From positions 1,301,260 to 1,365,259 of the forward strand of contig CBDFKF010000004.1 in assembly GCA_965248765.1 (NCBI GenBank): a DNA stretch of 64,000 nucleotides. The letters are read 5' to 3'. This document shows, piece by piece, positions 30,794-51,494 of the stretch. Each line of letters opens with the position of its first letter. The first letter of the stretch is position 1. This stretch comes from Alphaproteobacteria bacterium (GTDB lineage Bacteria > Pseudomonadota > Alphaproteobacteria > VGEJ01). Made by a program: the position numbers and the translations under genes. The notes under the pieces are model-generated. The model did not search any database. It saw only the letters and a program-made list of their open reading frames with translations, and was not told the origin of the DNA.

Positions 30794-33208
30794 CTAGTCC
30801 GCTGTACGCGCCACCGCCCTCAGGAGGCTCCACACCGTCCGGAACGGGACACCCCTTAGGTCGTCCCGCTCGCCGAGGTCCTTCAGCAGACCGACCGCAC
30901 GGATCATCGCCTCGTCCTCGCCGGCCGCCTCGGTCAGGGTCGCGACGGCCTGAGCGAGCGGCACTTCCTGCTCATCTCGACCGCCCATCAACTGGCTCAC
31001 CAGCACATCGAGCTGTTCATAGGCCTGCTGGACGGAGCCGCCATCGTGAGGTCGGCCGAAGATGCCGCGCACGCCATTTGCAGCGAACCGCCGGCGCAGG
31101 CCCTCGGGCATCGACTGCGCCACCCCCTCGAGGACCTCGCCGATGCCGAAGCCAGAGGTGAACATGCCGCGGACGGTATCCATGGTGCCATCGCCGCCAC
31201 CGTACATCCGGATCTGGGCGTTCTGCAGGGCATTGCCCATGGCTTTGGCCTGGTCGATGTGAATGTCCCGCTCAGCCTCGATGTAGAGCTTCGACAGCTC
31301 GAGAAACGTAGCCGCCTCGTTGTATTTCTTGAGCGCGGCTGCCTTGGCCTCCATACCCGTGGCCTCGGCCTCCAACTGGCGCTGGGAGTTTGCTACGCGA
31401 AGCGCTTCCACCTCCATGTCGGCCCGCCCCACGGCCCCCGCCTCGCGTTCGATGCCCTCAGCGCTGATTTTCTGCGCTTCGCTCGTCGCGGCGGCCCTCA
31501 CCCGTGTTGCTTCGGCCTCTAGCTCAGCCGCCTGGCGACGGGCCTCAGCCTGAGTCACCATGTGCATACGGTTGATCTCGGCCTTTCTCTCCTCCTCGAT
31601 ACGCTGCGTGTCCGCGAGCTTCTCAGCCTCGATGCGCTCGATCTCCTTGGCGCGCTCGGCATCGGCGACTGGGCGCACTGATTCCATCTCGTGCTCCGCA
31701 CGCTCCCTCTCGGCGGTGGTCTTGAGACGCTCGGCCTCCGTTTGCTCGAGTTCGCGGGCCTTCTCCACCAGTACTATCTCGCGATCACGCTCCTCAAGCT
31801 CACGGGCAAGAAAGCGCCGGATGTCGACCCTCTCGCGCTCCTGCTCCTTAGCGATAAGAGCGATCTCGCGTTCGCGCTCCTCGAGTTCGACCGCCAGCGT
31901 CCGGCGCACCTCGGCACGCCGTAGAGCCTCCTCCTTGGAGAGCTCCTCCTGTTGCACCTCCCAGCGGCGGTCCAGCACGTAGCGCTGCTTCTCCCCGAGA
32001 ATTCGTGCCTTCTCGTTGGCAACCTCTTGCTCTTGCTGGGCCTCGGCAACCGCCTCGTCCCGGTCCATGTCCAGCGTTGCGAGCGTCGTTTCCAGCTTAC
32101 GCTGCCGCATCGCCAGGGTGGACCCCTCGGTCGCTTCGTGACGAGCGTTGCGCGCCGTCTGTTCCTCGGCGGCAACAGCCGTCGCACGCTGGATCTCGAC
32201 CAGCTCGCGCTCCTTCTCCTTTTGGATGAGCTGGATTTCCTTTTCCTTCCTCTCTTGCTCCAGGGCAAGAGACTTCTGAATTTCGATGGCCTCGCGCTTC
32301 AGTGCTTCTTCCGTCAGCGCAACTTCGCGGCCGGTACGCTGGCGCTCCAGCGCCACGTCATTGCCGATCTCCTGTTCCTCGACCGCCATTCGCTGATTGA
32401 GGACAAAGACCTGCTTCTCGCGCACCTGTTGGGCCTGCTCATTCGATACAGCTTTGTCCTGATTGGCGCGAGCGAAGGCCTCCTGTCGTTCGATCTCAAG
32501 CAGCTCCAGCTGGGTATCCAAGTCCTTTTGGCGGATGGCGACGGCGGTCCGCTTCTCGGTATCGTGCACCACGCGGCGCGCGCTGGACGTGATGTCGGTG
32601 ATGATCTTCAAACCCTCGGCGTCGAACACGTTGTCGGCCTTGAAGTACTCCTTACCGGTTTGTTCCATCGTGACGATCGTCACCTCTTCGAGGATTAGGC
32701 CGTTGGTCTTGAAGCTCTCTAGCACGCCAGCCTTCATCGCCTGGGCAAAAGCATCCCGATTCTCATGGAGCTCGGACAGCGTTTTAGTGGCGGCATAGCT
32801 GCGCAGCGCACTCACCACCTTGGCTTCGAGTAAGTTTCGCACCTGCTCGGAATCGAACGTCTTGTCGCCCAGGGTTCGGCTTGCGGTTAGCAGGTTCTCA
32901 ACCGTGTGTCCGACGTGCGTATAGAGCTCGGCGGTGATATCGACACGGATCTTGTCCGACGTCAGGATCGCCTGATCGCGCGATCGGCTCACGATCAGCT
33001 TGATCGTCTCCAGCGACACCCACGTGATCTCGTGGAAGACCGGAAGAACGATAGCGCCCTGCCCGAGGCACACCTTGGTGCCCAGCGAGCCGGTGCGGAT
33101 GAACCCCATGTTCGATGGCGCCCGCTTGTAGACCCAGATCGAGAGGATGTAGATAATCGCGATAACGATGATCGCGATGACCAGCGCAATGATCACGTAT
33201 TCGAGCAT
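30794..33208 (-). CDS. flotillin-like SPFH/band-7 protein with very long E/A/R/K-rich coiled coil
   Basis: It has an N-terminal TM ('IIALVIAIIVIAIIYILSIWVY') and SPFH domain, then ~450 aa of repetitive coiled coil. The 804-aa length exceeds the typical ~500-560. Confidence 0.75.
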   Translation of the reverse strand: MLEYVIIALVIAIIVIAIIYILSIWVYKRAPSNMGFIRTGSLGTKVCLGQGAIVLPVFHEITWVSLETIKLIVSRSRDQAILTSDKIRVDITAELYTHVGHTVENLLTASRTLGDKTFDSEQVRNLLEAKVVSALRSYAATKTLSELHENRDAFAQAMKAGVLESFKTNGLILEEVTIVTMEQTGKEYFKADNVFDAEGLKIITDITSSARRVVHDTEKRTAVAIRQKDLDTQLELLEIERQEAFARANQDKAVSNEQAQQVREKQVFVLNQRMAVEEQEIGNDVALERQRTGREVALTEEALKREAIEIQKSLALEQERKEKEIQLIQKEKERELVEIQRATAVAAEEQTARNARHEATEGSTLAMRQRKLETTLATLDMDRDEAVAEAQQEQEVANEKARILGEKQRYVLDRRWEVQQEELSKEEALRRAEVRRTLAVELEEREREIALIAKEQERERVDIRRFLARELEERDREIVLVEKARELEQTEAERLKTTAERERAEHEMESVRPVADAERAKEIERIEAEKLADTQRIEEERKAEINRMHMVTQAEARRQAAELEAEATRVRAAATSEAQKISAEGIEREAGAVGRADMEVEALRVANSQRQLEAEATGMEAKAAALKKYNEAATFLELSKLYIEAERDIHIDQAKAMGNALQNAQIRMYGGGDGTMDTVRGMFTSGFGIGEVLEGVAQSMPEGLRRRFAANGVRGIFGRPHDGGSVQQAYEQLDVLVSQLMGGRDEQEVPLAQAVATLTEAAGEDEAMIRAVGLLKDLGERDDLRGVPFRTVWSLLRAVARTAD

Positions 33209-33290: not shown

Positions 33291-35603
33291 TTAGGCGATC
33301 GGCCACTCGCCGTTCCCAGATGGCCGCTCGCCAAAATCGAAGACCGGTAGGTCCTTGCGATTGCGCTGCATGGTCCTGCGTAGCTCTTGCGTTGCTCTTT
33401 GATCGATGTCAAAGCGGCGGCCAACAAGCACTACGCCATACTCGTTCCTTGCCGTTTCCGACGTCATCAGGTTGCGCGCAACGTCGTTGCGAACGAGCAC
33501 CGAGTCGCGCTCCAGCGCATCGCCCCAACCGCCACCGCCAGCAGTGCGGAAGACGATGCGATCGCCGCGCACCACCGTGACGTTGTCGACCTTGGAGGGC
33601 AGCGGCTCGCGGCTGCCGTCCTCGCGCACCAGCCATTTCTCTGAGCACTGGCCCGGCTTACCCCCGAGAATGCCCCAGGGTTGGGTGAGATGCCGGTCGT
33701 CGTGGATGGAGATCTCGCCCGCCTCGAGCAGCAAGTAGACCTTTTCGATGCCATTACCGCCCCGGTGTTTGCCGGCGCCGCCGGTGTCGGCGACGCTGCC
33801 ATAGCCCTCGATCACCATCGGGTAATAGCTCTCGAGGTACTCGGACGGGATGTTCTCGAACAGCGGCCACCAGGAGTGACCGTCCAGGCCATCGCCAACT
33901 GGGCGGCCGGGGATGCCACCATAGAGAATCTCCATCAGCTGGAAGCTCCGCCCGTCGCGATCGACCCCCGAGTACAGGAAGTGCGGGCTGGAGCCGTAGC
34001 CGGCCGCGGTGGCCATCTCCGGCGCGTGGCGGCTGAGGGCACCGCCCAGCACGTCGAACTGCCGCGAGAGCGCGTGGGTGCGCCCGCCTAGAGCTGCCGG
34101 GAACTTCGGCCGCACGAGCGATCCCTCAGGCATGGTGACGTGGATGAGGTCGTAGAAGCCGTCGTTGAAGAGGATCTGGGGGTCGAACACCATGATCATG
34201 TAGACCCCAATGAACATCTTAAACATGCCCTCGTGGAGGTAGAAGTTGATGGGCCCTGGCGACTGCGCTGCCGTACCGGTCCAGTCGAAATAGGCGTGCT
34301 CCCCCTCGCGCCAGACCGTGAGTTTCATCTTAAACGGCCCGTTGCCGCGGCCGTCGTCATCGACGTAGTCCTCGAACGATTGCGGCTCCTCCGGCAGGTT
34401 CTGGACGATCAGCTGGCGCATGGCGCGGTTGGTACGCTCGAGCAGGGCCTCGCAGGCCTGCATGTAGACCTCTTTGCCAAAGCGCTCGCAGATCTCGACC
34501 ACCCGCCGCTCGCCAGCGCGGCTTCCAGCGATGATCGCCATGAGGTCGCTATAGTTCATCTCCGGCGTGCGGGTGTTGTTCATGATCAAGTTGACCGCCG
34601 AACTGTTGAGCTCGCCCTTCTCGTAAATCTTAATCGGCGGGATCTTCAACCCCTCGCCGAAGATCGAGGTGGCGGCGGTCGGCATGCTGCCCGGCACCGG
34701 TCCACCGACGTCCATGACGTGGCCGAACATGGAGCTGAATCCGACGAGACCCCCTTCGTAGAAGATCGGTATCAACACCATCCAGTCATTGATGTGGCTG
34801 ACCGCCCCGCCGCATTTGTAGGGATCGCTCTGCAGGATCACGTCGCCCGGGTGGAGTTCGAATTGCTCGGCTGCCAGCATCTCCGAGACGTACGAGCCGA
34901 ACTGGCCAACGATCATGCGGCCCTTGGGATCGGTGATCATCGGGAACTCGTCATGCTGCTCGCGGATGACCGGCGACATCGCGGAGCGAAACAACACCGC
35001 GTCCATCTCGTGCCGGGCGTTCCGTAAAGCGTTCTCGACGAGGTCGAGCGTAATCGGGTCCAAACGCCCGCCCCTGCGCGGGCCGGGCTCGGCCGCGACC
35101 GGCGCGGCCTCAGGTCCACCGTTGGTGGGCAACGTCCGCGCTCCGGCCGGTGTGGGCGGCACATCGGTGGGCGCACGCAGCGTGGGAGGATCGCCGAACA
35201 GCTCCGCGCACTTCTTGAGCGCATCCTCAGTTGCGCGCTGCAACGCAGCGCCCTCGTCGCCGTGAATGCGCGCTGATCCGAACTGCGATTTCGTGACACC
35301 GTCGACCTCAAGCTTGCAGAGGACGGTGACCATGCGGCTGTCAGCGCGCCGGTTAACCACTTCGCACGACCAGCCACTGCCGAATTTGGCATTGAGCAGC
35401 GCGGCGACGCCGTTGCTTCCCTCGGTGTCCATTGCCTCGATGCTGGCTGAGGCCAGATCCTGCTCGGTCGGCGGGCGACGCGTGACGCCGAGCAAACCGA
35501 AGTCACGGTTCTGGGCATTGAGGATCTTGTCGAACTGCTGCTTGTTCGCCTTCAGCAGATCGTCGAGCGAGACGCTGCTGGTAGGGGGGGGCACATCCGA
35601 CAT
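33291..35603 (-). CDS. hyuB: hydantoinase B/oxoprolinase-family subunit (HyuB, copy 1) with ~175-aa N-terminal extra domain plus Pro-rich linker
   Basis: The HyuB core begins at 'LDPITLDLVENALRNARHEMDAVLFRSAMSPVIREQHDEFPMI', equal to the start of copy 2. Residues 1-~175 are additional: a globular ~125-aa part plus 'DPPTLRAPTDVPPTPAGARTLPTNGGPEAAPVAAEPGP'. The SD 'AAGAGGAG' precedes the ATG at 35603. Confidence 0.85.
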   Translation of the reverse strand: MSDVPPPTSSVSLDDLLKANKQQFDKILNAQNRDFGLLGVTRRPPTEQDLASASIEAMDTEGSNGVAALLNAKFGSGWSCEVVNRRADSRMVTVLCKLEVDGVTKSQFGSARIHGDEGAALQRATEDALKKCAELFGDPPTLRAPTDVPPTPAGARTLPTNGGPEAAPVAAEPGPRRGGRLDPITLDLVENALRNARHEMDAVLFRSAMSPVIREQHDEFPMITDPKGRMIVGQFGSYVSEMLAAEQFELHPGDVILQSDPYKCGGAVSHINDWMVLIPIFYEGGLVGFSSMFGHVMDVGGPVPGSMPTAATSIFGEGLKIPPIKIYEKGELNSSAVNLIMNNTRTPEMNYSDLMAIIAGSRAGERRVVEICERFGKEVYMQACEALLERTNRAMRQLIVQNLPEEPQSFEDYVDDDGRGNGPFKMKLTVWREGEHAYFDWTGTAAQSPGPINFYLHEGMFKMFIGVYMIMVFDPQILFNDGFYDLIHVTMPEGSLVRPKFPAALGGRTHALSRQFDVLGGALSRHAPEMATAAGYGSSPHFLYSGVDRDGRSFQLMEILYGGIPGRPVGDGLDGHSWWPLFENIPSEYLESYYPMVIEGYGSVADTGGAGKHRGGNGIEKVYLLLEAGEISIHDDRHLTQPWGILGGKPGQCSEKWLVREDGSREPLPSKVDNVTVVRGDRIVFRTAGGGGWGDALERDSVLVRNDVARNLMTSETARNEYGVVLVGRRFDIDQRATQELRRTMQRNRKDLPVFDFGERPSGNGEWPIA

Positions 35604-35615
35604 GGCTAACTCCTC

Positions 35616-37691
35616 TTACGTTCCCGAGGCGACCGAGCGCGGATCGTCCTGGGGGTAGATCAAAATGTTCAAGTACTCGTCGACGTCCCCCACGTGATCG
35701 GGATGGATAACCGTAGTCGTATCATCCTGCAAGATGACCGCCGGGCCCGCCACGCGATTGCCTGCGCCCAGCCGTTTGCGATCATAGATGTTGGCGGTGA
35801 GAAAGCTGCCGTCGAAGTAGACGCGATGCTGATCGACCACCGCCGCTGAGCCATCCTCGGCGTTCTTCTCAGAGCGCGGGATATTGACTTTCTCCACCTG
35901 TCCCGTCCCTACCGCCCGTAGATTGACGAGTTCGACCGGCGCATTTAGCCGGAAACCATAGAGCCGTTCATGCGCGGAGCCGAAGCGACTCTCGACATCA
36001 CCGAGGCCGCCGTTGGTGAGCGCATCCGGGTTGATGTCCAGCGAGAACTCATAACCCTGACGGAAGTACCGCACGTCGACCTGGTATTGCAATTCTTGAC
36101 GGGATTCGTCGACGCCTTCCTCGCGAAGCCACGCCTTCGCCTCGCTGCCGAGCTCCGTCAGCAGCTCGCTCACCTGGCCTGGATTGGTGTCGGCAATGTT
36201 CCGAATGAACGTGCGCGCGAACTCGTTTTTGACATCGGAGTAAAGAAACCCGAGTGCTGACAGGACCCCCGGGGTTGTCGGCACGATGACCGGGAAACAC
36301 CCCGCCAAGCGAGCAACGGCGTTACCGTGCATGGGTCCCGCCCCGCCAAAAGCCACCAAGGCAAAATCACGCGGGTCCAACCCTTTTTGCACGCTGACCA
36401 GGCGTAGCGCGCCCAACATATTCTCGTTGACGATATCGAGGATGCCTTGGGCGGCCTGATAGACGTCAAGGCCGAGCGCGTGTCCGATCTTTGCAACGGC
36501 GGTCTCCGCTGCGCCTGCGTCCAAGGCCATCTCGCCGCCCAGCAAGCTCGGCGGTAGGTGCCCGAGAACGACGTTGGCATCGGTCACCGTGGGCAGCTCG
36601 CCGCCGCGGCCATAGCACGCGGGCCCCGGCACCGCCCCCGCGCTCTCGGGCCCCACTCGTAGCGCACCGGTCATCGGCACATGCGCTATGGAGCCACCGC
36701 CGGCGCCCACGCTGTGCACCTCGACCGACGGGACCTTCACCGGATAGTAGCCGAGCGAGGTCTGACGGGAGATCGTGGGCTTGCCATCTTGTATTAGCGA
36801 GACATCGGTCGAGGTGCCGCCCATGTCAAAGCCGAGGGCGTTCGGCTGGCCCGCCAGCGAGGAGATGAAGGCCGCGCCGGATACCCCGCCCGCCGGACCC
36901 GAAAGCATCGTATGGACGGGAAATTCGCTCGCGCGCTGCACGCTCATCAGCCCGCCGTCGGAGCGTACGATGTTCACATGGGGCGAGAATTGGATCTCGT
37001 TCAGCCTTTGCTCGAACCCCTCCAGATACCGACGTACGCTGGGTCGTACGTAGGCGTTCATCACGGCGACCAACGTGCGTTCGTATTCCCGGAACTCCGG
37101 CAGGATCTCGGACGAAAGAGAGACCGGCAGCTCGGCATCCTGCTCGCGAATCAAGGCCTTCACGCGCTCCTCATGTTGGGAGTCGGCGTAGGAGTGGAGG
37201 AGTGAGACAGTAATCGACTCGACCCCCAATTCGAGCAGTTCGCGGATCGCCGAGCGTGCCTGTCCCTCGTCCAACGGTTTGATGACGTCGCCGCGCGCTG
37301 TTATTCGCTCGGAAACGCCGCGTGTGGCTTCGAGGTCTGCCATCGGCTCGGGCTTGATCATCGTGATCCAACCCGCCAGCGGACCCGGCGTTTGTGAGCG
37401 CGCCAGGTGCAGGACCTGCTCGAAGTTCTCCGTCACCAGCAAGCCGACCCTCGCACCTTTACCCTCGAGGACGATGTTGGTCGAGACCGTGGTTCCGTGT
37501 AGCAGCGTCCGAATATCCGGCGGCGCAACGCCCGATTCGGCGACGATCTTTTTGATGCCCGTGAGAATGCCCACAGACTGATCTTCCGGCGTAGACGGCG
37601 TTTTCAGCAGGTGAATGTCACCGGTGGCTTCGTTGAACAACAAGAGATCCGTGAAAGTGCCACCGACGTCGATGCCGAGGCGGCTGCTCAT
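35616..37691 (-). CDS. hyuA: hydantoinase A / N-methylhydantoinase A-family subunit (HyuA, copy 1)
   Basis: It starts 'MSSRLGIDVGGTFTDLLL' and is 691 aa, the typical HyuA architecture. Confidence 0.85.
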   Translation of the reverse strand: MSSRLGIDVGGTFTDLLLFNEATGDIHLLKTPSTPEDQSVGILTGIKKIVAESGVAPPDIRTLLHGTTVSTNIVLEGKGARVGLLVTENFEQVLHLARSQTPGPLAGWITMIKPEPMADLEATRGVSERITARGDVIKPLDEGQARSAIRELLELGVESITVSLLHSYADSQHEERVKALIREQDAELPVSLSSEILPEFREYERTLVAVMNAYVRPSVRRYLEGFEQRLNEIQFSPHVNIVRSDGGLMSVQRASEFPVHTMLSGPAGGVSGAAFISSLAGQPNALGFDMGGTSTDVSLIQDGKPTISRQTSLGYYPVKVPSVEVHSVGAGGGSIAHVPMTGALRVGPESAGAVPGPACYGRGGELPTVTDANVVLGHLPPSLLGGEMALDAGAAETAVAKIGHALGLDVYQAAQGILDIVNENMLGALRLVSVQKGLDPRDFALVAFGGAGPMHGNAVARLAGCFPVIVPTTPGVLSALGFLYSDVKNEFARTFIRNIADTNPGQVSELLTELGSEAKAWLREEGVDESRQELQYQVDVRYFRQGYEFSLDINPDALTNGGLGDVESRFGSAHERLYGFRLNAPVELVNLRAVGTGQVEKVNIPRSEKNAEDGSAAVVDQHRVYFDGSFLTANIYDRKRLGAGNRVAGPAVILQDDTTTVIHPDHVGDVDEYLNILIYPQDDPRSVASGT

Positions 37692-37820
37692 GACCCGGTT
37701 TGTGCCGCCAAGCACCGAATGCGCGGGGGAAAGCCGCCACGCCCAGCCAAAACGCTTGTCGCGCTCTCGGGCTTTGCTATATTGCCGTTCACCGCGTCGC
37801 CCAGTATAACTGCATCGGTC

Positions 37821-38348
37821 ATGGCACAAGAATCTGTAGGCCTGCGCCCACCAAGATTCCTGATAGTCGTTGTCGGGATCATTATACTATTGATCTTTCT
37901 TTACTTTTATCGTCCATTCGAAACTTATTTTACCGAAAGTATCCAGGACATTGACTCGTCCAACATTGTTTTTTGGTTTGCTTCGCTCATTGGAGTACTC
38001 GGCTATGTCGTCTCCCATTGGCGGTCTTTTCGTCACAACATTTTCCGCAGCGTCACAGACCTCGACATCGAAACTCTCGTCTTCGACACGCTGCAGATCG
38101 CCATTTTGATCGCGGTCATCTTTTGCGCAGGTGCGATCCTTCAAGAAATCGAGATGCTGGCTGAGCACCTCATCGAACGGGGTACCATCATCGGGCCATT
38201 TTTTGGCGGCAGATTGCTGTCAATCATACTGCTGTTCCTCCTAGCGGTCGCCTTCTACCTCCTACACCGCATGGTGCGCGCCTTCCGCATCGGGTGGCGT
38301 CCCGACAGGGTACCCCCGCGGGCTTCCTCCGCTAGCGGCCGCTCTTGA
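37821..38348 (+). CDS. small membrane protein P2 (paralog of 24262..24726)
   Basis: The 175-aa protein has 'LIFLYFYRPFETYF' and 'SNIVFWFASLIGVLGYVVSHWRSFR'. It is divergent from hyuA copy 1. Confidence 0.5.
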   Translation: MAQESVGLRPPRFLIVVVGIIILLIFLYFYRPFETYFTESIQDIDSSNIVFWFASLIGVLGYVVSHWRSFRHNIFRSVTDLDIETLVFDTLQIAILIAVIFCAGAILQEIEMLAEHLIERGTIIGPFFGGRLLSIILLFLLAVAFYLLHRMVRAFRIGWRPDRVPPRASSASGRS

Positions 38349-38397: not shown

Positions 38398-39501
38398 CTA
38401 GCTAGCCGCGGCGCCCGCCTCAGCCTCGAACGGATGGCGGGCGATGAAGTCGTCGGCGATCTCGTCGAACGTGCACCAGCGGGCCGCGGCGTGGCTCGAA
38501 ATGTACTCGATCATGCGCTCGATCACCGACAATACCTGCGGTCGGCCTGATATGTCGGGATGGATCGTCAGCGTGTACACCGCATAATCCATCTCGCGAT
38601 AGACCCAGTCGAACTGATCGCGCCACCACTCCTCGATGTCGCGCGGGTTCACCCAGCCGTGGCTGTTGGGTACGGTCTTCATGAACATCAGCGGCGGCAG
38701 GTCATCGAGGTACCAACTGGCCGGAATCTGAACCATGGGCACCGTGGTGCCGAGCTCCATCGGCTTCATCCAAGTATCAGCCGGTTTCCCGTAGTCGATG
38801 AGCGTCCACACCTCGTTGATTCGCGTCCAAAAAGGCGTGAAGTCGTTGTGCATCTGGCTGTGGTCGTACTTGATGCCACGATCCAAAAGGAGATGCGGTG
38901 TCGCTTGGCTCATTTCCCACCAGGGTGCGACATTGCCCGTCGGCCGGCGACCAGAGATGTCCGTGATCAGGCCGATGCACTTGTCGAGGATGTCCGCCTC
39001 CTGATCCGGGGTCATCTGCACGGGGTTCTCGTGGGTGTAGCCGTGCAGACCGATCTCGTGTCCTTCATTGGCCACCCGCCGCATCATGTCCGGCCAGGTC
39101 TCTATCGTGTGTCCGGGAATGAACCAACTCGTGCTCAGCTCGTAACGCTTGAACAATTCCAACATGCGCGGGGTACCGACCTCGGCGGAAAAGACGCCGC
39201 GGCCGATGTCACTTGGCGAGTTGCCGCCCCCATACGAGCCGATTTGCCCGGCAACGGCATCGACGTCGACGCCGATGCCGCAGAGAATTTCCTTGGTGCC
39301 GCCGCCGGCCGCAGGCCTCGCCGCTGGCCGCCCTTCCGGCCGGCTTGCACGCGGTCCCGCACCGGCACGCGTCGCCCCAGACGGTGGCGAAGCCGTTGGC
39401 CGCGGGCGGTATCGTTCACCGATGACATCGTCGGGGCTGGACGCCGCGGATGCGGATCGCCGTGGATGCCCACGGAACTCGGAGTCGGAACGATCGCTCA
39501 T
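38398..39501 (-). CDS. polysaccharide deacetylase (NodB-homology) family hydrolase
   Basis: 'WFIPGHTIETWPDMMRRVANEGHEIGLHGYTHE' gives the NodB motifs. The start is at 'MSDRSD', preceded by GGGAGGTGA, and the N-terminus has a low-complexity Ala/Pro/Arg stretch. Confidence 0.7.
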   Translation of the reverse strand: MSDRSDSEFRGHPRRSASAASSPDDVIGERYRPRPTASPPSGATRAGAGPRASRPEGRPAARPAAGGGTKEILCGIGVDVDAVAGQIGSYGGGNSPSDIGRGVFSAEVGTPRMLELFKRYELSTSWFIPGHTIETWPDMMRRVANEGHEIGLHGYTHENPVQMTPDQEADILDKCIGLITDISGRRPTGNVAPWWEMSQATPHLLLDRGIKYDHSQMHNDFTPFWTRINEVWTLIDYGKPADTWMKPMELGTTVPMVQIPASWYLDDLPPLMFMKTVPNSHGWVNPRDIEEWWRDQFDWVYREMDYAVYTLTIHPDISGRPQVLSVIERMIEYISSHAAARWCTFDEIADDFIARHPFEAEAGAAAS

Positions 39502-39712
39502 CGTCTCACCTCCCGTGCTGATCGTTGACTTCTTGGCGCGCCGATCTCGGCTCAGCCCGCCTCCGTTTGATACATCCCGCCCCGGCATCGATCAACCCGG
39601 ATGACGATCGGCTTCGAGGCGTGCCGACCCACGGTGGGCTTCGTTGATCGCCAGCTGACCACCGGCTATCGTCCCCGGGTGCTAGCCAGACAGCGCGCGC
39701 CGGGAGGACGAC

Positions 39713-40441
39713 ATGGACGATTGGCAATCACACACGCGCAGGGACTACGAGCGCAAGGGCTTCGCGGTCCACGCCGGCTACGGTGCCAAGCCGGTCCTAC
39801 TGCTCGTCGATTTCATTAACGGCTTTACCGATCCTGCGACACCGCTCGGCGGCGATCTCACAAGCCAGATCGCGGTAAGCAAAGAACTCATGGCCGCGTT
39901 CCGCGCCAATGGTTTGCCGGTGGTGTACACGACCATCGCTTACAAGCCGGATCTCAGCGACGCCGGCATGTGGATCAAGAAGATCCCGTCGCTGGAAATC
40001 CTGGCGAAGGGCTCGCCCATGGTCGAGATCGACGAGCGGCTCCGTCCCCTGCGCGGCGAGCGCGTGGTGGAGAAAAAGTTCGCGAGCGCCTTCTTCGGGA
40101 CCAATCTCGATGCGTATCTTCGCGGCCAGGGCATTGATACGATCATCATGACGGGGTGCACGACCAGCGGCTGCATTCGCGCCTCGGCCGTGGATTCAAT
40201 CCAGTACGGGTACTACACGATCGTCGTCGGGGACGCGGTCGGCGACCGCACCGAAGGCCCGCACGAAGCCAAACTATTCGATATCGACGCCAAGTATGGC
40301 GACGTTGTCGCCGGTATTGCAGTGTTCGATTACCTGCGGTCACTGATGCCCTCGGGAGCGTTTGCCGCAAGAGCCGACTACGATTTCCGCCGCTGGTGGA
40401 GCGACGATTCAAGCACGGCGGAGGACCGGCGCTATGGCTAA
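39713..40441 (+). CDS. isochorismatase-fold cysteine hydrolase (N-carbamoylsarcosine amidase-like), copy 2
   Basis: 'VLLLVDFINGF' and 'IIMTGCTTSGCIRASAVDS' are paralogous to 22276..22899. Confidence 0.75.
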   Translation: MDDWQSHTRRDYERKGFAVHAGYGAKPVLLLVDFINGFTDPATPLGGDLTSQIAVSKELMAAFRANGLPVVYTTIAYKPDLSDAGMWIKKIPSLEILAKGSPMVEIDERLRPLRGERVVEKKFASAFFGTNLDAYLRGQGIDTIIMTGCTTSGCIRASAVDSIQYGYYTIVVGDAVGDRTEGPHEAKLFDIDAKYGDVVAGIAVFDYLRSLMPSGAFAARADYDFRRWWSDDSSTAEDRRYG

Positions 40442-40970
40442 CGACGCCGACCGGCTGTCCTCCCCGTTCGATGAGATGCTCGCCAACAATCGGGAGCAGT
40501 TCGACGCGCTCTACGGCGGCGAGCAAGGCGGGCTCGCCGGAGCTAGGCGGGTTCAGGCGTCAACCGCCGAGCGCCAAACGGAACGCGCCGGACCTTCCGG
40601 GCAGCAGGCGCCACTCACCGTCCCTTCCTCGGATTTCAATGCACGATCCACCCCATCCGCCGGTGTCCTAGACGAGTGGTTCGGCGATCGTTGGCGTTTC
40701 GAGATCACGGACCAGCGTCGCGATCGCGACGAGATCGTCGTGGTGGGTCGCGTAATCGTCGCGGATCAGGGCATTGAGATGACCGGGATCGGGCGCGCCA
40801 CCGCGGCAGGCGCAACGCCACGAGAGGTGATCGAGGGAACGGTTGCCGGCATCGCTTTCCAAGCCACACCGGGCGGCGGCTTACACAATGCGACCGCCGT
40901 TGATACGGAGGAATCTGGATTCAAGAGAGCCGCCGTGGCAGCCCTGGCGCAGTGCGTGCAGCTACCCTGA
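40434..40970 (+). CDS. hypothetical protein D2, paralog of the HyuB N-terminal extension
   Basis: Its start overlaps the upstream stop (ATGGCTAA). 'FDEMLANNREQFDAL' and 'WFGDRWRFEITDQRRDRDEIVVVGRVIVADQGIEMTGIGRAT' align to 'LDDLLKANKQQFDKIL' and 'FGSGWSCEVVNRRADSRMVTVLCKLEVDGVTKSQFGSAR' of the hyuB copy 1 extension. Confidence 0.45.
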   Translation: MANDADRLSSPFDEMLANNREQFDALYGGEQGGLAGARRVQASTAERQTERAGPSGQQAPLTVPSSDFNARSTPSAGVLDEWFGDRWRFEITDQRRDRDEIVVVGRVIVADQGIEMTGIGRATAAGATPREVIEGTVAGIAFQATPGGGLHNATAVDTEESGFKRAAVAALAQCVQLP

Positions 40971-41039: not shown

Positions 41040-41888
41040 TTAGCTAGTCTGCTGGTCCGCCTCGATGCGCTGCCAGAGGTCGCGGATCATGTCCTTCATC
41101 ATCAGCGTCTCTTCCCAGCGGTCGGAAAGCTCGTAGCCGTCGGCGCCGGTTATTGCGTATTCGCGCGGGCCTAGCTCGCACAAGAAGGTCAGTGTCGCGT
41201 CTGCGTGCGCGCGTCGCCGCCAGCTGCGGAACCCGTATTCCCACCAATCCATGAACAGATCCACCCAGTCCTTGTGATGGCGGAAGCTGATCTGGATCTG
41301 CACCTGCTCACGGCTGGCGACCCGCCCGTGAAACCCCCAGCAATTGTCGAGGATGCGGTGCATCAGTGCGTGGTTCTCATCGGAGATCGGCCAGGCAAAC
41401 TCACGCCCGACGAGAAAGTGCGAGATATCGCCGGTGAGGCGAAGATCGGGGAAACGATCTAGGAGATGGAGAGTGAAGAATAGATCCGTCGTCATCCGAT
41501 CCCGGTGGGTCTCGATATGCACCGGGAACGGCGCGTCGGCGGCGATGCGCTGCCAGCCCTCGACGATCGGCACCGCCTCTTCCAGGGCATAGGGCTTGAC
41601 GTCAGGTTGCACGTTGAGGTGGTCGATCACAGGTCCGAACGCTGCCACCTGCTCGATCATCGGCTCGAGCTCCTCGGCGGTCTTCGGAAAGCAGAACGCC
41701 GCGCCCGTCATCCCATTCGTCCGTAAGAATTCGGTTACGACCTCTGCTGTCGAGGGATCATGGAAGCCGACGCCGTTGAACCCGGCATCGCGGATCATCT
41801 CAAGCTTCTGATCGAGCGGCCATTCCTCGCCGTCGGGCTGCCGCCGCTCCATCGCCCACATGGATTGATAGACGAGCAATTTCTGCAT
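41040..41888 (-). CDS. sugar phosphate isomerase/epimerase (xylose-isomerase-like TIM barrel)
   Basis: The 282-aa protein has the typical length and pattern 'GFNGVGFHDP...HIETH' for this family. Confidence 0.6.
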   Translation of the reverse strand: MQKLLVYQSMWAMERRQPDGEEWPLDQKLEMIRDAGFNGVGFHDPSTAEVVTEFLRTNGMTGAAFCFPKTAEELEPMIEQVAAFGPVIDHLNVQPDVKPYALEEAVPIVEGWQRIAADAPFPVHIETHRDRMTTDLFFTLHLLDRFPDLRLTGDISHFLVGREFAWPISDENHALMHRILDNCWGFHGRVASREQVQIQISFRHHKDWVDLFMDWWEYGFRSWRRRAHADATLTFLCELGPREYAITGADGYELSDRWEETLMMKDMIRDLWQRIEADQQTS

Positions 41889-41911: not shown

Positions 41912-42775
41912 TCAGGCGTCCAGCTCGACCTCTGACTTCGCAGTCAGCGTCACTTGATCGTGGGGATGATCCTCAGGATGCATGAAACGCCTAGCCCTGC
42001 CGGCACGCACGTGACCGCGCTCCTTGACCGCGCTGTCCGGCAGTCTCTTGAGCGGCGTGTAGCGCGGCATGTGGTGCTCTTTGTACGGGTCGTTGCGTGC
42101 AGCGTTGTAGCAGCATAAGAGGACGTCGCGGTTACGATCCGATGTGTTCTGGTCCGAACCGTGCAGCGTGTTGCAGTGCAGGAAGAGCGCATCGCCCGGC
42201 GCAAGCTCGCCATGGACGACATCGAGCATCTTCAGCGCGTGCTCGACGCGCTCCGGGTCGGCCGTGGTCTGCCCTTCCACCAGCATGTGGTCCTGGCGCC
42301 CCATCTGGTGTGAGCCCTTGAGCACCTGCAGACAACCGTTGTCACGGTTGGCATCGGTGATCGCGATCATCACGCTCAACATGTGGGGGAATAGGTTGCC
42401 GTTGAAGTACCAGTAGCCGTAGTCCTGGTGCCAGTTCCACGCACCGCCAGTGCGTGGTGCCTTCAACGTCAGCTTCGAGTGATAGTGGTACACCTCGCCG
42501 CCGAGCAGGAGCCCGACGCCGTCGACCATGCGCTGGCAGCGAGCGATCGCCCCGAAAAGATCATCGCCAGGCTCCGTCCATAGGATGGTGTCCGTGGTGC
42601 GCCCCTGGCCGTCGAGGATCGCCATATTGTTGGCATGATCGCCAATCCCCTCGTCCTCCAAAAGCGCGTGCCGCATCAGCTCGGCTTCTTCCTCATCGAA
42701 GAAGGCCCGCTTGATCAAGAACCCATCCTCATTGAAACGCGCCGCCTCTTCGGCGGTCACCCGGGGATAGCCCAT
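41912..42775 (-). CDS. PhyH-family Fe(II)/2-oxoglutarate dioxygenase (ectoine-hydroxylase-like), copy A
   Basis: 'WNWHQDYGYWYFNGNLFPHMLSVMIAITDANRDNGCLQVLKGSH' is the His-x-Asp...His facial triad context of the PhyH family. Confidence 0.75.
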   Translation of the reverse strand: MGYPRVTAEEAARFNEDGFLIKRAFFDEEEAELMRHALLEDEGIGDHANNMAILDGQGRTTDTILWTEPGDDLFGAIARCQRMVDGVGLLLGGEVYHYHSKLTLKAPRTGGAWNWHQDYGYWYFNGNLFPHMLSVMIAITDANRDNGCLQVLKGSHQMGRQDHMLVEGQTTADPERVEHALKMLDVVHGELAPGDALFLHCNTLHGSDQNTSDRNRDVLLCCYNAARNDPYKEHHMPRYTPLKRLPDSAVKERGHVRAGRARRFMHPEDHPHDQVTLTAKSEVELDA

Positions 42776-42807
42776 AACATCGCTCCCTTGAGGCGCAGCC
42801 GCGCCCC

Positions 42808-43671
42808 TCAGTTTCCCAGCTCAGCCTCCGATTTCACGGTCAGGCTGACTTGCTCGTCGGGGATGCGGTCGGGGTGCATGAAGACCCGAGCGTTGCCAGC
42901 GCGAACATTGCCGCGCTCCATGACCGCGCTGTCGGGCAACTTGTCCAGCCGCGTATAGCGCGGGAAATGGTGCTCCATGTACGGGTTGTTCCGCGCCGCG
43001 TTGTAGCAACACAGGAGCACGTTACGGTTGCGGTCTGAGGTGTTCTGGCCGGAGCCGTGCAGCGTGTTGCAGTGTAGGAATAGCGCATCCCCCGGCGATA
43101 GCTCGCCGTGGACGACATCGAGAACCTCAAGCGCGTGCTCGACACGCTCGGGATCGGCCGTTGTTTGGCCCTCCACCAACATGTGGTCGAGCCGGCCCAT
43201 GTGGTGCGAGCCCTTGAGCACCTGGAGACAGCCGTTCTCACGGTCGGTTTCGCTGATCGCGATCATCACGCTCAGCATGTGCGGGAACAAGTTGCCGTTG
43301 AAGTACCAGTAGCCGTAATCCTGGTGCCAATTCCACGCCCCGCCGGTCCGCGGCGCCTTGAGCGTCAGCTTGGAGTGGTAATGGTAGACCTCGCCGCCGA
43401 GTGCGAGCTCAACGCCATTGACCATGCGCTCACAGCGCGCGATCGCACCGAACAGGTCATCACCGGGCTCGGTCCACAGGATCGTATCGGTGGTGTGACC
43501 CTGGCCGTCGAGGATCGCCATGTTGTTGGCATCGTCACTGATGCCCTCGTCCTCGATGAGCGCCCGCTGCATCAGCTCGGCCTCTTCGTTGTCGAAGAAG
43601 GCCCGCTTGATCAGAAACCCATCCTCGTTGAAACGCGCCGCCTCGTGGCCAGTCACCGTCGGGTAGCCCAT
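42808..43671 (-). CDS. PhyH-family Fe(II)/2-oxoglutarate dioxygenase, copy B
   Basis: It is ~85% identical to copy A over 287 aa. The start is taken at 'MGYPTVTG'. Confidence 0.75.
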   Translation of the reverse strand: MGYPTVTGHEAARFNEDGFLIKRAFFDNEEAELMQRALIEDEGISDDANNMAILDGQGHTTDTILWTEPGDDLFGAIARCERMVNGVELALGGEVYHYHSKLTLKAPRTGGAWNWHQDYGYWYFNGNLFPHMLSVMIAISETDRENGCLQVLKGSHHMGRLDHMLVEGQTTADPERVEHALEVLDVVHGELSPGDALFLHCNTLHGSGQNTSDRNRNVLLCCYNAARNNPYMEHHFPRYTRLDKLPDSAVMERGNVRAGNARVFMHPDRIPDEQVSLTVKSEAELGN

Positions 43672-43877
43672 CGCATCGTCTCCCTGCCGCCAGGCCATCG
43701 AGCGCCGTTGGCAGCGCCCAATGATATCGTGCCGCACGCCACGCTATGACGCAAATTGCCTACGTCACGGCATCGTGGCGAGCCTGTTGTTGACTCTTTG
43801 GCCTTGTTGCGGAACAGTTCGGCGCCGGAATAACCGCTTCGGCAAGGACTTTCATAGGGATGCCCCAGGGAGGGAGT

Positions 43878-45578: not shown

Positions 45579-46571
45579 TCAGCTTGTCGGCTTGAGGCAG
45601 GCGGTGAGTGACTTGGCGAGGTTACGCATCAGCACGAAGTAGGCGTCCGCGCCGGGCTCCAGATCTGCGCCCATGGGGTCGAGAACGCCGGTGCGCGCGC
45701 CGCTCCCCTCGATGACGGTTCGCACGACCGCGGGCCTGAACTCTGGCTCGGCGAACACACATGTCGCGCCCGTCTCGAGGATCTTCTTGCGCACGTCGAA
45801 CAGCTTCGCGGCGCCCGGCATGCGTTCCGGACTGACCGTGATCGAGCCGGCCGGCTTCAGACCGTAGCGCGCGTCGAAGTATGGGTAGGCGTCATGAAAA
45901 ACGATATACGATCGGTCCTTGATCGACGCGAGCTCGCGTTCCAGTGTCACGTCTAGTTCGGCAAGGCGCGCCCGCACCGCGGCCCCATTGGCCTCGTACG
46001 AAGCCGCGTTGGCCGGATCAGCATCGCTCAGGGTCGCCACGATCTGCTCCACAACCGCCATCGCGTTCACGGGATCGAGCCATAGGTGCATGTTGATCGC
46101 GCCGCGCGCGTGTTGGTGATCGCGCGCATCGCCGTGGTTTTGACCTTGGTCCTTGCCACCCTCGTGGCGAAGCTCGTCCCCTTCGTCATGGGCGCGCGTG
46201 CCCCAGTCGTCACCTTCGCGAAACGCTAGTAGCCTGACGCCAGGCACTTCGTGCAGCGCCACCGCGCGGGCGCTGCGCGGAAGCGCCGCCAGGGGCCGTT
46301 CCAGGAAGGTCTCCATCTCCGCGCCGATCCAAAAAACGACGTCGGCCCGTTGCAACGCCGCAGCTTCCGACGGCCTGAGCGCGTACGTATGCGGCGACGC
46401 GCCACCCTTGACCAGTAGTGTCGGCTCGCCAACGCCGGCCATGACGCCAGCCACGAGCGAGTGAACGGCCTTGATGCTCGCGACGACCTCCGGCGTCTCG
46501 GCAGCGGCGGCCTCGACTGCGGACGTCCACAGCGCTAGTCCGGCGCCTATCGCGCAAAACGTTCGGAACAT
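45579..46571 (-). CDS. znuA: zinc ABC transporter substrate-binding protein with His-rich loop
   Basis: It has the ZnuA fold plus the loop 'HDEGDELRHEGGKDQGQNHGDARDHQHARG'. It is divergent from zur-znuCB. Confidence 0.8.
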   Translation of the reverse strand: MFRTFCAIGAGLALWTSAVEAAAAETPEVVASIKAVHSLVAGVMAGVGEPTLLVKGGASPHTYALRPSEAAALQRADVVFWIGAEMETFLERPLAALPRSARAVALHEVPGVRLLAFREGDDWGTRAHDEGDELRHEGGKDQGQNHGDARDHQHARGAINMHLWLDPVNAMAVVEQIVATLSDADPANAASYEANGAAVRARLAELDVTLERELASIKDRSYIVFHDAYPYFDARYGLKPAGSITVSPERMPGAAKLFDVRKKILETGATCVFAEPEFRPAVVRTVIEGSGARTGVLDPMGADLEPGADAYFVLMRNLAKSLTACLKPTS

Positions 46572-46618
46572 TGCGCCTCCCGCCCGCTCCCGTCTTCTTC
46601 GCTGCCTCACCAGGACGT

Positions 46619-46631
46619 GTTATAGTATAAC
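46619..46631. promoter_or_regulatory. Zur box (GTTATA-g-TATAAC) in the znuA/zur divergent intergenic region
   Basis: It is a perfect 6-1-6 palindrome matching the core of the enterobacterial/alphaproteobacterial Zur consensus TGTTATAnTATAACA. The coordinates are approximate to +/-2. Confidence 0.55.
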
Positions 46632-46685
46632 GTCTCAACAGCACTGCGTCGCAGGTCCACCCGCCACGGAACGCGAGGCAACTCC

Positions 46686-47189
46686 ATGCAGCCCTTCTCC
46701 ACCTTTCCGAGCGCGCACCACAACCATCAGAGCTGCGTTGCGGCGATACTCGCCGACGCCGAGGACCTTTGCCATGACCGCAAGGTCCGCTTCACGGCCC
46801 AGCGGCGCCGTGTGCTTGAGGTCGTCGCGGAGAGCCACGCCGCCATCGGCGCATACGAGATCATGGAGCGACTCCCCCACGAGGGACGACGGCCGGCACC
46901 TATCACTGTTTATCGCGCCCTCGATTTTCTAATCGAGCAGGGCTTGGTGCACCGCCTCGCCAGTCTCAACGCTTACGTGAGCTGCCCGCGTCCTGGCGCC
47001 GCGCACGGCGCTCAGTTCCTGATCTGCCGGCACTGCGGCGTAATCGGAGAGCTCACCGATCCGGCTGTCGATCGGGCGATTGCCGGCGCAGCCACTGAAG
47101 TCGGTTTCGAAGTTGCCTCGCCGGTCATCGAGATCGCCGGCGTGTGTGTCAATTGTCGTGGGGATACCGATCGTGGCGCGGCGGTGTGA
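46686..47189 (+). CDS. zur: Fur-family zinc uptake regulator
   Basis: The 167-aa Fur-fold protein has C-terminal CxxC pairs ('CRHCG', 'CVNCRG') and sits upstream of znuCB. Confidence 0.8.
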   Translation: MQPFSTFPSAHHNHQSCVAAILADAEDLCHDRKVRFTAQRRRVLEVVAESHAAIGAYEIMERLPHEGRRPAPITVYRALDFLIEQGLVHRLASLNAYVSCPRPGAAHGAQFLICRHCGVIGELTDPAVDRAIAGAATEVGFEVASPVIEIAGVCVNCRGDTDRGAAV

Positions 47190-51477: not shown

Positions 51478-51494
51478 TGTAACGGAGAGCGGAT

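Follow-up and report, generated by a model that had tools for sequence, protein, structure and literature searches.

The small protein encoded directly after an isochorismatase-fold amidohydrolase gene in the 64,000-nucleotide stretch of DNA analysed here (the window), called D2, belongs to an undescribed branch of the Rad52/22 single-strand-annealing-protein (SSAP) superfamily, by homology as well as by fold. D2 is a real gene under selection, and in it a core of recombinase type appears to have been recruited, in a non-catalytic capacity, to a pathway that degrades nitrogen heterocycles. The gene and the end of its upstream neighbour are organized as follows.

39713..40441, + strand: isochorismatase-fold amidohydrolase of 242 aa, N-carbamoylsarcosine-amidase-like, with the D33, K121/122 and C154 motifs (Pfam PF00857, E 2.6e-36)
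40376..40399, + strand: C-terminal tail motif DYDFRRWW of the amidase, residues 222-229 (alignment)
40420..40425, + strand: GGAGGA, Shine-Dalgarno-like hexamer of putative function, read from the sequence, 8 nt before the D2 ATG and within the amidase coding sequence
40434..40441, + strand: ATGGCTAA, the D2 start overlapping the stop of the amidase gene (sequence)
40434..40970, + strand: D2 gene, free-standing Rad52-core protein of 178 aa, stop codon included (ORF, sequence)

The D2 ATG occupies 40434-40436 and the TAA stop of the amidase ORF 40439-40441, the junction reading ATGGCTAA, in agreement with the initial annotation, which had described the D2 start as overlapping the hydrolase stop. 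The 'MAN...' start of D2 is kept in orthologs, and the gene shows a dN/dS of 0.23-0.40. Also, D2 evolves faster than its neighbours, with identities of 49-55% compared with 76-86% between the window and a related locus (L012). Scans against Pfam and NCBIfam gave no match for D2, and promoter, terminator and Rfam scans of the 37-42 kb region found nothing, with no obvious structured RNA. Along the protein, five segments can be distinguished.

40458..40517, + strand: N-terminal helix motif, residues 9-28 (SSPFDEMLANNREQFDALYG), common to D1, the HyuB extension described below (AF2 helix 11-28; D1-D2 alignment)
40518..40640, + strand: low-complexity linker, residues 29-69, predicted disordered (pLDDT <50 in both models)
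40641..40802, + strand: Rad52-like core, residues 70-123, with a helix at 74-83 and strands at 87-97, 100-109 and 114-123 (FGDRWRFEI...)
40803..40892, + strand: D2-specific insertion, residues 124-153, with a G[ST]xxG[IV]xF motif and a predicted extra beta-hairpin, 133-137 and 140-144 (alignment, AF2)
40893..40961, + strand: C-terminal long helix, residues 154-176 (..ESGFKRAAVAALAQCVQL), equivalent of RAD52 helix 3 (AF2 helix 155-176)

Conservation between D1 and D2 is highest in the N-terminal helix, whose motif is confined to the N-terminal ends of D1-HyuB and D2 proteins; the linker that follows differs in length and sequence across the D family. The core is predicted with confidence (AF2 pLDDT ~90). 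The insertion has no counterpart in D1 or in D3, the third form of the domain, and is kept in most D2-type proteins; its hairpin is seen in the model built on the D2-type alignment, with pLDDT block means of 83 for residues 131-140 and 66 for residues 141-150. The C-terminal helix is predicted with block-mean pLDDT values of ~86-92 and the protein stops 2 residues after it, which fits the earlier remark that D2 ends in a helix like that of D1. Moreover, L171 and C174 of this helix are invariant in the D family alignment. The protein as a whole is acidic (pI 4.7, net charge -8), and D2-type proteins conserve an RRR patch in the first hairpin. The D2 of the window shows every trait of its subtype: a free-standing protein of 140-200 aa encoded directly after an isochorismatase-fold gene, with an SSxFDxMLxxNRxxFD helix, a disordered linker, the core, the G[ST]xxG[IV]xF insertion and an end at ..ALAxCAxLL. 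It departs from the consensus at a few positions, being VVVGRV for VLCKL and GIGRA for QFGRA, as does a 54%-identical relative (P0199).

The relationship with Rad52 is evident when profiles are compared. A profile built only from D-type proteins matches 38 bona fide Pfam Rad52_Rad22 proteins among 1.8 billion proteins, with E values of 1e-11 to 1e-15, and HHalign of the D2 family against 23 canonical Rad52 members gives 99.3% (E 2.9e-20). Also, the top BFVD matches are phage Rad52, Sak3 and Erf proteins, and the D2 core has the helix, three strands and long helix of the superfamily. The existing Pfam model PF04098 barely detects this branch: at its gathering threshold of 20.3 bits D2 has no match and D1 falls short (16.5 bits, E 0.008), and weak matches appear in only 5 of 52 D-type members, the best with E 3.8e-4. 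A search of PDB sequences with the D profile gave no match. The identity of this region as a truncated Rad52 annealing-protein core was absent from the initial annotation.

The function of Rad52/22 SSAPs involves a ring of about 10-11 subunits and a strand-annealing activity, and R55 and Y65 of the human protein, in the N-terminal hairpin segment, line the inner ssDNA groove. The equivalents of these two residues are invariant in the canonical bacterial Rad52 members compared, and no counterpart of the segment is detectable in D2, where AF2 places the N-terminal helix and the disordered linker instead. Derivation of the D1/D2 N-terminal helix from the canonical 'PFxxxxIKxR' segment was considered and rejected, the HHalign value (0.4%) being no better than the reversed control. 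The long helix of D2 aligns to residues ~140-158 of human RAD52, with A-Q at the positions of K152 and R153; in D2-type proteins the first position of this pair is A or M and the second R, K, Q or N, D3 keeps R-K and D1 varies. Moreover, the GVGLxLY motif and the helices following it are absent from D2, all sequence beyond the long helix being gone. Phage or recombination neighbours (exonuclease, SSB, replication genes) were not found around D2 in the window or in 13 related loci. Taken by its residues, D2 may have lost DNA binding. D types and canonical Rad52-like proteins cannot be told apart by the net charge or pI of their cores, which are therefore uninformative, and since a K/R-K/R pair is often kept in D1 and D3, and the RRR patch in D2-type proteins, some residual nucleic-acid binding may persist.

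The domain is also present on the opposite strand of the window, fused to a hydantoinase subunit.

35184..35603, - strand: D1, paralogous domain (helix, linker, Rad52 core), the N-terminal 140 aa of HyuB (alignment to D2; weak Pfam Rad52_Rad22 match)
33291..35183, - strand: Pro-rich linker and Hydantoinase_B body of HyuB copy 1 (Pfam PF02538, E 7.6e-148, residues 182-695)

The initial annotation took D2 for a free-standing paralog of this HyuB extension, and both BLASTP (E 0.002, 22% identity over 168 columns) and Smith-Waterman comparison bear it out, the latter scoring 74 against 32-33 ± 5 for shuffled sequences, a score reached by none of 2 x 2000 shuffles (z 7.5-8.1); the two alignment blocks that it had quoted were reproduced. 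Across the family, three forms are found: D1, fused to the N-terminus of HyuB; D3, at either end of a second HyuB type (HyuB-X); and the free-standing D2, of which 35 or more clusters (50% identity) exist, none of them named and all metagenomic. Among 102 matches of the D family, the only co-occurring Pfam domain is Hydantoinase_B. Fused D1-HyuB ORFs of 754-775 aa are called in three related loci (L012, L018 and L020), and the full length of D1-HyuB is matched by tblastn in four more (L002, L003, L005 and L010). D3 is C-terminal on HyuB-X in L002-L005 and N-terminal in P0142, P0145 and P0160; therefore, the D domain is position-independent and linker-tethered. The HyuB of L017 has helix and linker with the core absent, and a free core protein is encoded nearby. 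In L016 an insertion-less D-type gene overlaps the stop of a small membrane protein gene (memb), not that of the amidase.

D2 shares with D1 and D3 the invariant core residues (G84, W87, E90, V103, L171 and C174) and the clustering or fusion with HyuAB and amidase genes, and with D1 the N-terminal helix motif and the helix-linker-core layout. It differs from both in being a separate polypeptide, in its hairpin insertion of ~30 residues, in terminating just past the long helix, in the loss of the basic pair and in the coupling of its gene to that of the amidase and not to HyuB. Two other views of the family were discarded. D2 looked like an orphan, one 98%-identical copy being returned, because a word-indexed search is not very sensitive; the family came to light in profile and exhaustive searches. 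Also, many D1 matches that looked free-standing have Arg-rich or HyuB-like tails, or lie by a split HyuA/HyuB (L001), and correspond to frameshifted or truncated fusions.

Around these genes, the window encodes the following neighbours.

30794..33208, - strand: SPFH/Band_7 (flotillin-like) protein of 804 aa, immediately downstream of D1-HyuB (Pfam PF01145)
35616..37829, - strand: HyuA copy 1, longest ORF, the real start probably near residue 47 (Pfam Hydant_A_N, Hydantoinase_A, Hydant_A_C)
37611..38348, + strand: memb, conserved small multi-pass membrane protein, the real start probably internal (synteny)
38398..39588, - strand: polysaccharide-deacetylase-fold enzyme, divergent from the amidase-D2 pair (Pfam PF01522; PDB 3qbu, E 9.5e-127)

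Like the window, 13 distinct related loci carry an orthologous amidase gene directly before D2, the intergenic distance ranging from -11 to +43 nt and mostly being +10 or less. The association with an isochorismatase-fold gene proposed from the window is thus general among these relatives, and D2 is conserved beside the same enzymes in related genomes. Its neighbours in these loci are the amidase, the deacetylase-fold enzyme (syntenic in all long loci), HyuAB, CobW, membrane proteins and Band_7. All loci sampled represent a rather narrow set of uncultured soil Alphaproteobacteria, and part of the synteny may reflect shared ancestry. A second HyuAB pair is also found downstream of D2 in most relatives, so that HyuAB might be the partner of D2 just as well as the amidase. 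The window does not encode the D3-bearing HyuAB-X; the second HyuAB there (49402-53411), considered as a D3 carrier, was rejected, being a closer paralog of copy 1 (49-54% identity) with no D domain. Relatives have a small Cys-rich ORF after D2, which the window lacks as well.

The best solved relative of the amidase is an N-carbamoylsarcosine amidohydrolase (PDB 26st_A, E 8.4e-66; also 1nba, E 4.7e-40) and that of HyuB is an N-methylhydantoinase (PDB 7hk5_A, E 2.7e-70), which lends support to the route from hydantoin through N-carbamoyl-amino acid to amino acid that had been guessed before, and makes an N-methylhydantoin-like compound a candidate substrate. The amidase reached no NCBIfam equivalog cut-off, the HyuAB subunits scored far below the NCBIfam cut-offs for acetophenone carboxylase and caprolactamase, and memb has no Pfam or NCBIfam match. 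The tail of the amidase extends past the end of the solved homolog, and its DF-x-x-WW motif, invariant in the window amidase and 11 orthologs, may serve as a docking element.

Based on these data, the leading reading, a tentative one at somewhat below an even chance, is that D2 no longer acts on DNA and that it connects the amidase with the HyuAB enzymes as a subunit for assembly or tethering, devoid of catalysis. The D branch has kept only the helix, three-strand and long-helix core, and has a family-specific amphipathic N-terminal helix and a long disordered linker where the ssDNA-binding segment would be, D2 having in addition the extra beta-hairpin. The same core is tethered by flexible linkers to HyuB, at the N-terminus in D1 and at either terminus of the second HyuB type in D3. 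D2 and the N-carbamoylsarcosine-amidase-like hydrolase are made from one transcript. In the proposed mechanism, D2 would bind the amidase, perhaps via the amidase tail, and its core and helix would bind the homologous modules on HyuB. In this way the ATP-dependent ring-opening HyuAB and the downstream amidase would be held in one complex, its subunits produced in matched amounts, and the N-carbamoyl intermediate of an N-methylhydantoin-like substrate would be handed on directly. Loss of DNA binding, contacts of D2 with other proteins, the identity of its partners, channelling and the substrate are inferences. A more elaborate version, which we regard as a long shot, is that a phage-type Rad52 was domesticated for multi-enzyme assembly, with the core as a hub, possibly ring-forming, and the separable docking helix on long flexible tethers gathering two different HyuAB and the amidase, perhaps anchored to the SPFH scaffold and the small membrane proteins. 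If true, it would represent a hitherto unknown type of device for clustering enzymes in bacteria, made out of a recombinase fold.

It is possible, if unlikely, that D2 serves as a partner of the amidase with no physical link to HyuAB, stabilising, activating or inhibiting it, or carrying a labile N-carbamoyl or carbamate intermediate. Adjacency of amidase and D2 is the most conserved feature of the 13 related loci and the window, the DFxxWW tail is specific to partnered amidases and the hairpin insertion of D2 is missing from the HyuB-fused copies. Moreover, the pair occurs in L008 with no HyuAB within 10 kb and, as the lineage of the window also has no HyuAB-X after D2, D2 may serve the amidase alone. 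However, this does not account for the HyuB fusions of the same clusters, which carry a homologous core and the N-terminal helix of D2, or for the coupling of the insertion-less D-type gene of L016 to memb.

Recruitment to the membrane appears doubtful as the main role of D2. According to this proposal, the helix and core modules would be adaptors docking HyuAB and the amidase on memb and/or the SPFH/Band_7 protein, so that catabolism takes place at a membrane microdomain beside an uptake system. A memb paralog does lie beside each D-bearing HyuAB, and the L016 D-type gene overlaps a memb stop. Also, Band_7 directly follows D1-HyuB in every locus reaching that position, being 82% identical in L018 where HyuB is 54% identical, and a second multi-pass membrane protein comes after HyuB-X whether D3 is N- or C-terminal. 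Nonetheless, all of this is synteny, the pair of amidase and D2 is seen in L008 and several short contigs with none of these membrane genes in view, and no membrane-binding feature is evident in D2, with its acidic pI.

Retention of nucleic-acid binding is very unlikely to be the explanation, that is, that D2 binds ssDNA or structured RNA through its Rad52/dsRBD-like surface and controls the operon, for instance through feedback of D2 on translation of the amidase-D2 mRNA. No equivalent of the R55 and Y65 segment, part of the canonical ssDNA groove, is detected, the D2 of the window has A-Q in place of K152/R153 and is negatively charged (net -8), the region holds no Rfam element or obvious structured RNA, and covalent fusion to a metabolic enzyme at either end is hard to square with a regulator. 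Finally, a decaying phage annealing gene or a spurious ORF with a chance likeness to the HyuB extension, suggested by the nearest recognisable relatives being phage or bacterial Rad52-type proteins, by the lack of a Pfam or NCBIfam match and by the single close homolog of the first word-indexed search, is refuted in practice by the shuffle controls (4000 in all), the dN/dS, the 35 or more family clusters with conserved length, start and motifs, the fixed non-phage neighbourhood and the confidently predicted core.

Returning to the tethering model, the earlier view of D2 as a selected, pathway-linked module rather than a stray phage gene has gained ground from the dN/dS, from the co-occurrence with Hydantoinase_B and from a third copy fused to the second HyuB type, and D2 is best regarded as a putative accessory module. 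To our knowledge, annealing proteins of Rad52 type have been described only in DNA repair and phage recombination. The D branch comprises hundreds of sequence clusters, has no name, is not covered by any Pfam or NCBIfam model or any paper, and forms part of catabolic operons through HyuB fusion or translational coupling to the amidase. If the assembly role is true, it would be a clear example of a recombinase core re-used for metabolism and would give a testable handle on how HyuAB-type enzymes pass labile carbamoyl intermediates onward. It would also draw attention to a conserved cluster of uncultured soil Alphaproteobacteria that contains HyuAB, the amidase, an HpPgdA-like deacetylase, CobW and an SPFH protein. 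For annotation, a 'Rad52-like' match need not signal a prophage.

In comparison with known systems, the Rad52/Rad22 SSAPs of PF04098 (human and yeast Rad52, Mgm101, phage Sak and bacterial Rad52-likes) have the groove Arg/Tyr segment and the GVGLxLY motif with its following helices, whereas D2 lacks these and the K152/R153 pair, has its own N-terminal helix, disordered linker and hairpin insertion, and is of a type fused to or encoded beside metabolic enzymes and never seen in a recombination or phage context. The dsRBDs and the N-terminal domain of ribosomal protein uS5 score below RAD52 and give no sequence signal; D2 does not show the dsRBD pattern (helix, three strands and helix in ~65-70 aa with a dsRNA-binding sequence signature) and, unlike either, has a long C-terminal helix and sequence motifs of Rad52 type. 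Acetone carboxylase gamma and the extra subunits of acetophenone carboxylase are small polypeptides encoded with HyuA/HyuB-family enzymes. D2 would resemble them only in its proposed role, as a non-catalytic protein beside an ATP-dependent HyuAB-type enzyme; they are not Rad52-like, and no sequence or fold relationship was detected. Literature searches linking Rad52 with hydantoinase, oxoprolinase or isochorismatase, or addressing the cluster or pathway, returned nothing relevant, and a Rad52-like component of the N-methylhydantoin/creatinine route was not described in the literature searched. That route, formed by N-methylhydantoinase and N-carbamoylsarcosine amidohydrolase, is close on the enzymatic side, its enzymes being the best solved relatives of those flanking D2, with the difference that the solved N-carbamoylsarcosine amidohydrolase lacks the DFxxWW tail and the window amidase has it.

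D2 (178 aa) and residues 1-203 of the HyuB ORF that carries D1 as its N-terminal extension (33291-35603, minus strand) are aligned by BLASTP with an E value of 0.002 and 22% identity, and the two blocks of similarity quoted in the initial annotation are both recovered. This likeness is not due to chance, the Smith-Waterman score between D2 and D1 being 74, compared with 32-33 +/- 5 for shuffled sequences (z of 7.5-8.1), and none of 2 x 2000 shuffles reaching it. Also, the overlap of the D2 start with the stop of the upstream amidase gene is present as had been read: the ATG (40434) lies 5 nt ahead of the amidase TAA in ATGGCTAA, with GGAGGA 8 nt 5' of this ATG.

39713-40441, plus strand, isochorismatase-fold amidase ORF (242 aa), preceding D2
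40376-40399, plus strand, DF-x-x-WW tail motif of the amidase (D222-W229)
40434-40970, plus strand, D2 ORF (178 aa)

A Pfam scan of D2 gives no match, and no Pfam or NCBIfam model covers it. For D1, Rad52_Rad22 alone appears, below threshold (16.5 bits, E 0.008, versus a gathering score of 20.3), and independent lines of evidence establish that this weak signal is real homology. A profile search with an alignment of D-type sequences only (A4) against 1.84 billion representative proteins gives 777 proteins at E <= 1e-3, of which 177 reach E <= 1e-10. The matches listed include a group of proteins 190-240 aa long with the consensus of a textbook Rad52-like annealing protein of bacteria or phages, 38 of the 47 scanned from it passing Pfam Rad52_Rad22 (best E 6.8e-18). 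Moreover, HHalign comparison of the D2-type family (alignment A6) with 23 purely canonical members gives a probability of 99.3% (E 2.9e-20, 87 columns), and a Foldseek search of a library of viral structures ranks phage Rad52/59/22, Sak3, Erf, and RAD52-like recombinases highest. By homology and fold, D2 is a member of the Rad52 superfamily, an identity stated with high confidence.

Three forms of the domain were defined from the second and third homolog searches and an exhaustive search. D1 consists of helix, linker, core, and Pro-rich linker, followed by HyuB; uninterrupted D1-HyuB ORFs of 754-775 aa are called in the related metagenome loci L012, L018, and L020, and the window fusion is matched by tblastn over its full length in L002, L003, L005, and L010. 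Many apparently free D1 proteins proved to be frameshifted or truncated fusions. D3 is the core alone, located at the extreme C-terminus of HyuB-X, a second and more distant HyuB type, in L002-L005 (about 14,900-15,200), and at the N-terminus of this type in other lineages (proteins P0142, P0145, and P0160); a further D3 lies at 135-420 of L019. The HyuAB-X pair is not in the window. D2 is the free-standing form, with at least 35 representatives at 50% identity among the top 150 matches, and Hydantoinase_B is the sole Pfam domain co-occurring with the family (102 matches). In L017, HyuB (1334-1604, minus strand) has retained the N-terminal helix together with a linker of about 100 aa but has no Rad52 core, and a free D1-like D2 without the insertion is encoded 3' of the amidase; since helix and core are encoded separately there, the helix looks like a separable module. 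All named members are hypothetical proteins from metagenomes or MAGs, labeled only as uncultured Alphaproteobacteria, Xanthobacteraceae, or Bradyrhizobiaceae.

The proposed coupling of D2 to an isochorismatase-fold gene is borne out by 13 distinct related loci (L001/2, L003-L005, L006-L010, L011, L012/13, L014, L015, L017, and L020/21), in all of which D2 is immediately preceded, in the same orientation, by an ortholog of the window amidase (55-76% identity). The distance from the amidase stop to the D2 ATG is -8 nt in the window, -11 in L012, +1 in L011, +5 to +10 in L002, L005, L006, L007, L008, L014, and L015, and +43 in L017. D2 is obligately paired with one amidase subfamily, L016 being the one exception, where a D-type gene lacking the insertion overlaps the stop of, and is translationally coupled to, a homolog of memb (a small multi-pass membrane protein) at the place where the amidase would stand. 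The conserved order in the longer loci is Band_7 (a flotillin-like SPFH protein) <- D1-HyuB <- HyuA, memb ->, deacetylase-fold enzyme <-, amidase -> D2 ->, with (<- CobW, <- small ORF) between memb and the deacetylase-fold enzyme. In L001-L005 and L010, the next genes 3' of D2 are a small and strongly conserved ORF on the opposite strand and, beyond it, HyuA-X; L002-L005 extend as far as the genes for HyuB-X-D3, for two membrane proteins, and for an ABC importer, and the L001 and L010 contigs stop inside the HyuAB-X genes. HyuAB-X is absent from the window and from L012/13, the nearest relative of the window (D2 54% identical), both of which carry PhyH genes 3' of D2 instead.

The amidase contains an isochorismatase domain (E 2.6e-36) with the Asp33, Lys121/122, and Cys154 motifs; among solved structures, its best relatives are N-carbamoylsarcosine amidohydrolases (26st_A, E 8.4e-66; 1nba, E 4.7e-40). 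The solved amidohydrolase (221 residues) ends where the alignment ends, whereas the amidase continues with a tail of about 30 extra residues bearing DF-x-x-WW, invariant in the window and all 11 aligned D2-partnered orthologs (among L002-L020); this tail is possibly a docking peptide. For HyuB, the best solved relative is the N-methylhydantoinase 7hk5_A (E 2.7e-70). The deacetylase-fold enzyme (38398-39588, minus strand) is very near H. pylori HpPgdA (3qbu, E 9.5e-127), a protein with a debated physiological substrate; here the enzyme bears a low-complexity extension (about 100 aa) at its N-terminus, stands within a hydantoinase/amidase cluster and, in relatives, adjoins a CobW (COG0523) GTPase gene. 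None of these three proteins reaches an NCBIfam equivalog threshold. Judged from sequence, an N-methylhydantoin-like route would be plausible for the cluster.

We lean, tentatively, toward D2 being a non-catalytic subunit that tethers the amidase and the HyuAB enzymes to each other. On the amidase side, binding may be by the DFxxWW tail of that enzyme or by the D2 hairpin; on the HyuAB side, D2 would meet D1 and D3 in core-core or helix-core contacts. The stoichiometry would be fixed by translational coupling, and the likely gain would be direct handover of the N-carbamoyl product. That D2 is a partner of the amidase only seems unlikely. In favor of this reading, L008 (4.8-Mb contig) has the amidase-D2 pair with no HyuAB within 10 kb; against it, flexible linkers tie D2 paralogs to one HyuB end or the other in the same clusters. 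Somewhat more doubtful is a membrane or flotillin recruitment adaptor, favored by the persistence of the memb and Band_7 genes across loci and by the coupling in L016, the sole exception to the amidase pairing.

Several other features stand in the neighborhood. The memb protein, with no family assignment, lies beside each D-bearing HyuAB (window 37611-38348, plus strand; L016 64-585; L003 16407-16871). Band_7 (30794-33208, minus strand; 804 aa) has a long Glu/Arg/Ala-rich coiled-coil region, is always 3' of D1-HyuB, and is better conserved than HyuB between L018 and the window (82% versus 54% identity). A Cys-rich 79-aa ORF (CxxC...C...C) on the opposite strand just past D2 is 78-95% identical between loci and therefore probably a real gene; the window has no copy. 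At 45579-48821, 5 kb from D2, the window has a locus for zinc uptake (ZnuA / Fur-family (Zur-like) / ZnuC / ZnuB), and relatives carry a CobW-type putative zinc chaperone within the cluster, which hints at a link to zinc supply. A second HyuA/HyuB pair in the window (49402-53411, plus strand) shares 49-54% identity with copy 1 and lacks a D domain; the HyuB of this pair bears a tail of about 100 aa beyond the Pfam domain. Converging on D2 are a tandem pair of PhyH-family dioxygenase paralogs and an ORF of 282 aa without a family match, and in another sub-lineage an AhpC/TSA peroxiredoxin gene lies directly 3' of the D-type gene on the same strand.

Window 41912-43737 and 41040-41888, minus strand, genes converging on D2
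L001 2938-3177 (plus strand), L007 5415-5651, L009 1331-1513, L010 10527-10763, Cys-rich ORF
L015 767-904, L016 1039-1176, L020 10553-11011, AhpC/TSA peroxiredoxin

Purifying selection acts on D2 (dN/dS 0.23-0.40, nine pairs), which evolves quicker than the adjacent genes; it is a selected gene, and a decaying phage gene or artefact is highly improbable. Full-text literature searches for Rad52 paired with hydantoinase, oxoprolinase, or isochorismatase, and for the gene cluster or an N-methylhydantoin pathway, gave nothing relevant.

Finally, the D domains were aligned with human RAD52 (the sequence used is identical to PDB 1kn0_A) and match its residues about 66-160. The canonical N-terminal segment LxxPFxxxxIKxRxGxxGxxLxYVE bears the equivalents of human R55 and Y65 (hR55 and hY65) of the inner ssDNA groove; neither residue varies among the canonical bacterial members shown in the alignment. 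Because the D sequences in this alignment were trimmed to the core, the N-terminus was compared separately. Unlike canonical Rad52, D1 and D2 have their own helix, SSxFD[DE][LM]LxxN[KR]xQFD, and after it a disordered linker of 40-60 residues, rich in Pro and Ala; HHalign of helix and canonical segment gives 0.4%, equal to the reversed-sequence control, with no detectable relation between them, and AF2 predicts helix and disordered linker here, with no hairpin. Also absent from the D domains are the LLGVGLxLY motif and all sequence beyond the long helix, D2 and D3 ending a few residues past it. At K152/R153, canonical members have K/R-K/R and D3 keeps R-K, whereas D1 is variable; in D2-type proteins the first position is A or M and the second is R, K, Q, or N (A-Q in the window). 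D2 is a Rad52-derived core in which neither a counterpart of the hR55/hY65 segment nor the K152/R153 pair is found. Since it lies below the curated Pfam threshold and lacks the DNA-groove features and genomic context of Rad52, annotation of D2 as an annealing protein should be avoided. Residual nucleic-acid binding or a regulatory role has a low probability, slightly below that of the membrane adaptor; the domain would rather have given up DNA and now work in protein-protein assembly. D2-type proteins have gained a conserved insertion, G[ST]xxG[IV]xF, predicted from a D2-rich alignment as an extra beta-hairpin (pLDDT block means 83 and 66). The Cys of ..ALxxCA.., invariant across all D types, is inherited from the bacterial Rad52-like consensus (DALKKCA) and is therefore no new catalytic feature. 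D2 would represent a known fold family in a new, non-DNA and enzyme-associated role, unexpected to a specialist in Rad52 and annealing proteins or to a HyuAB enzymologist.
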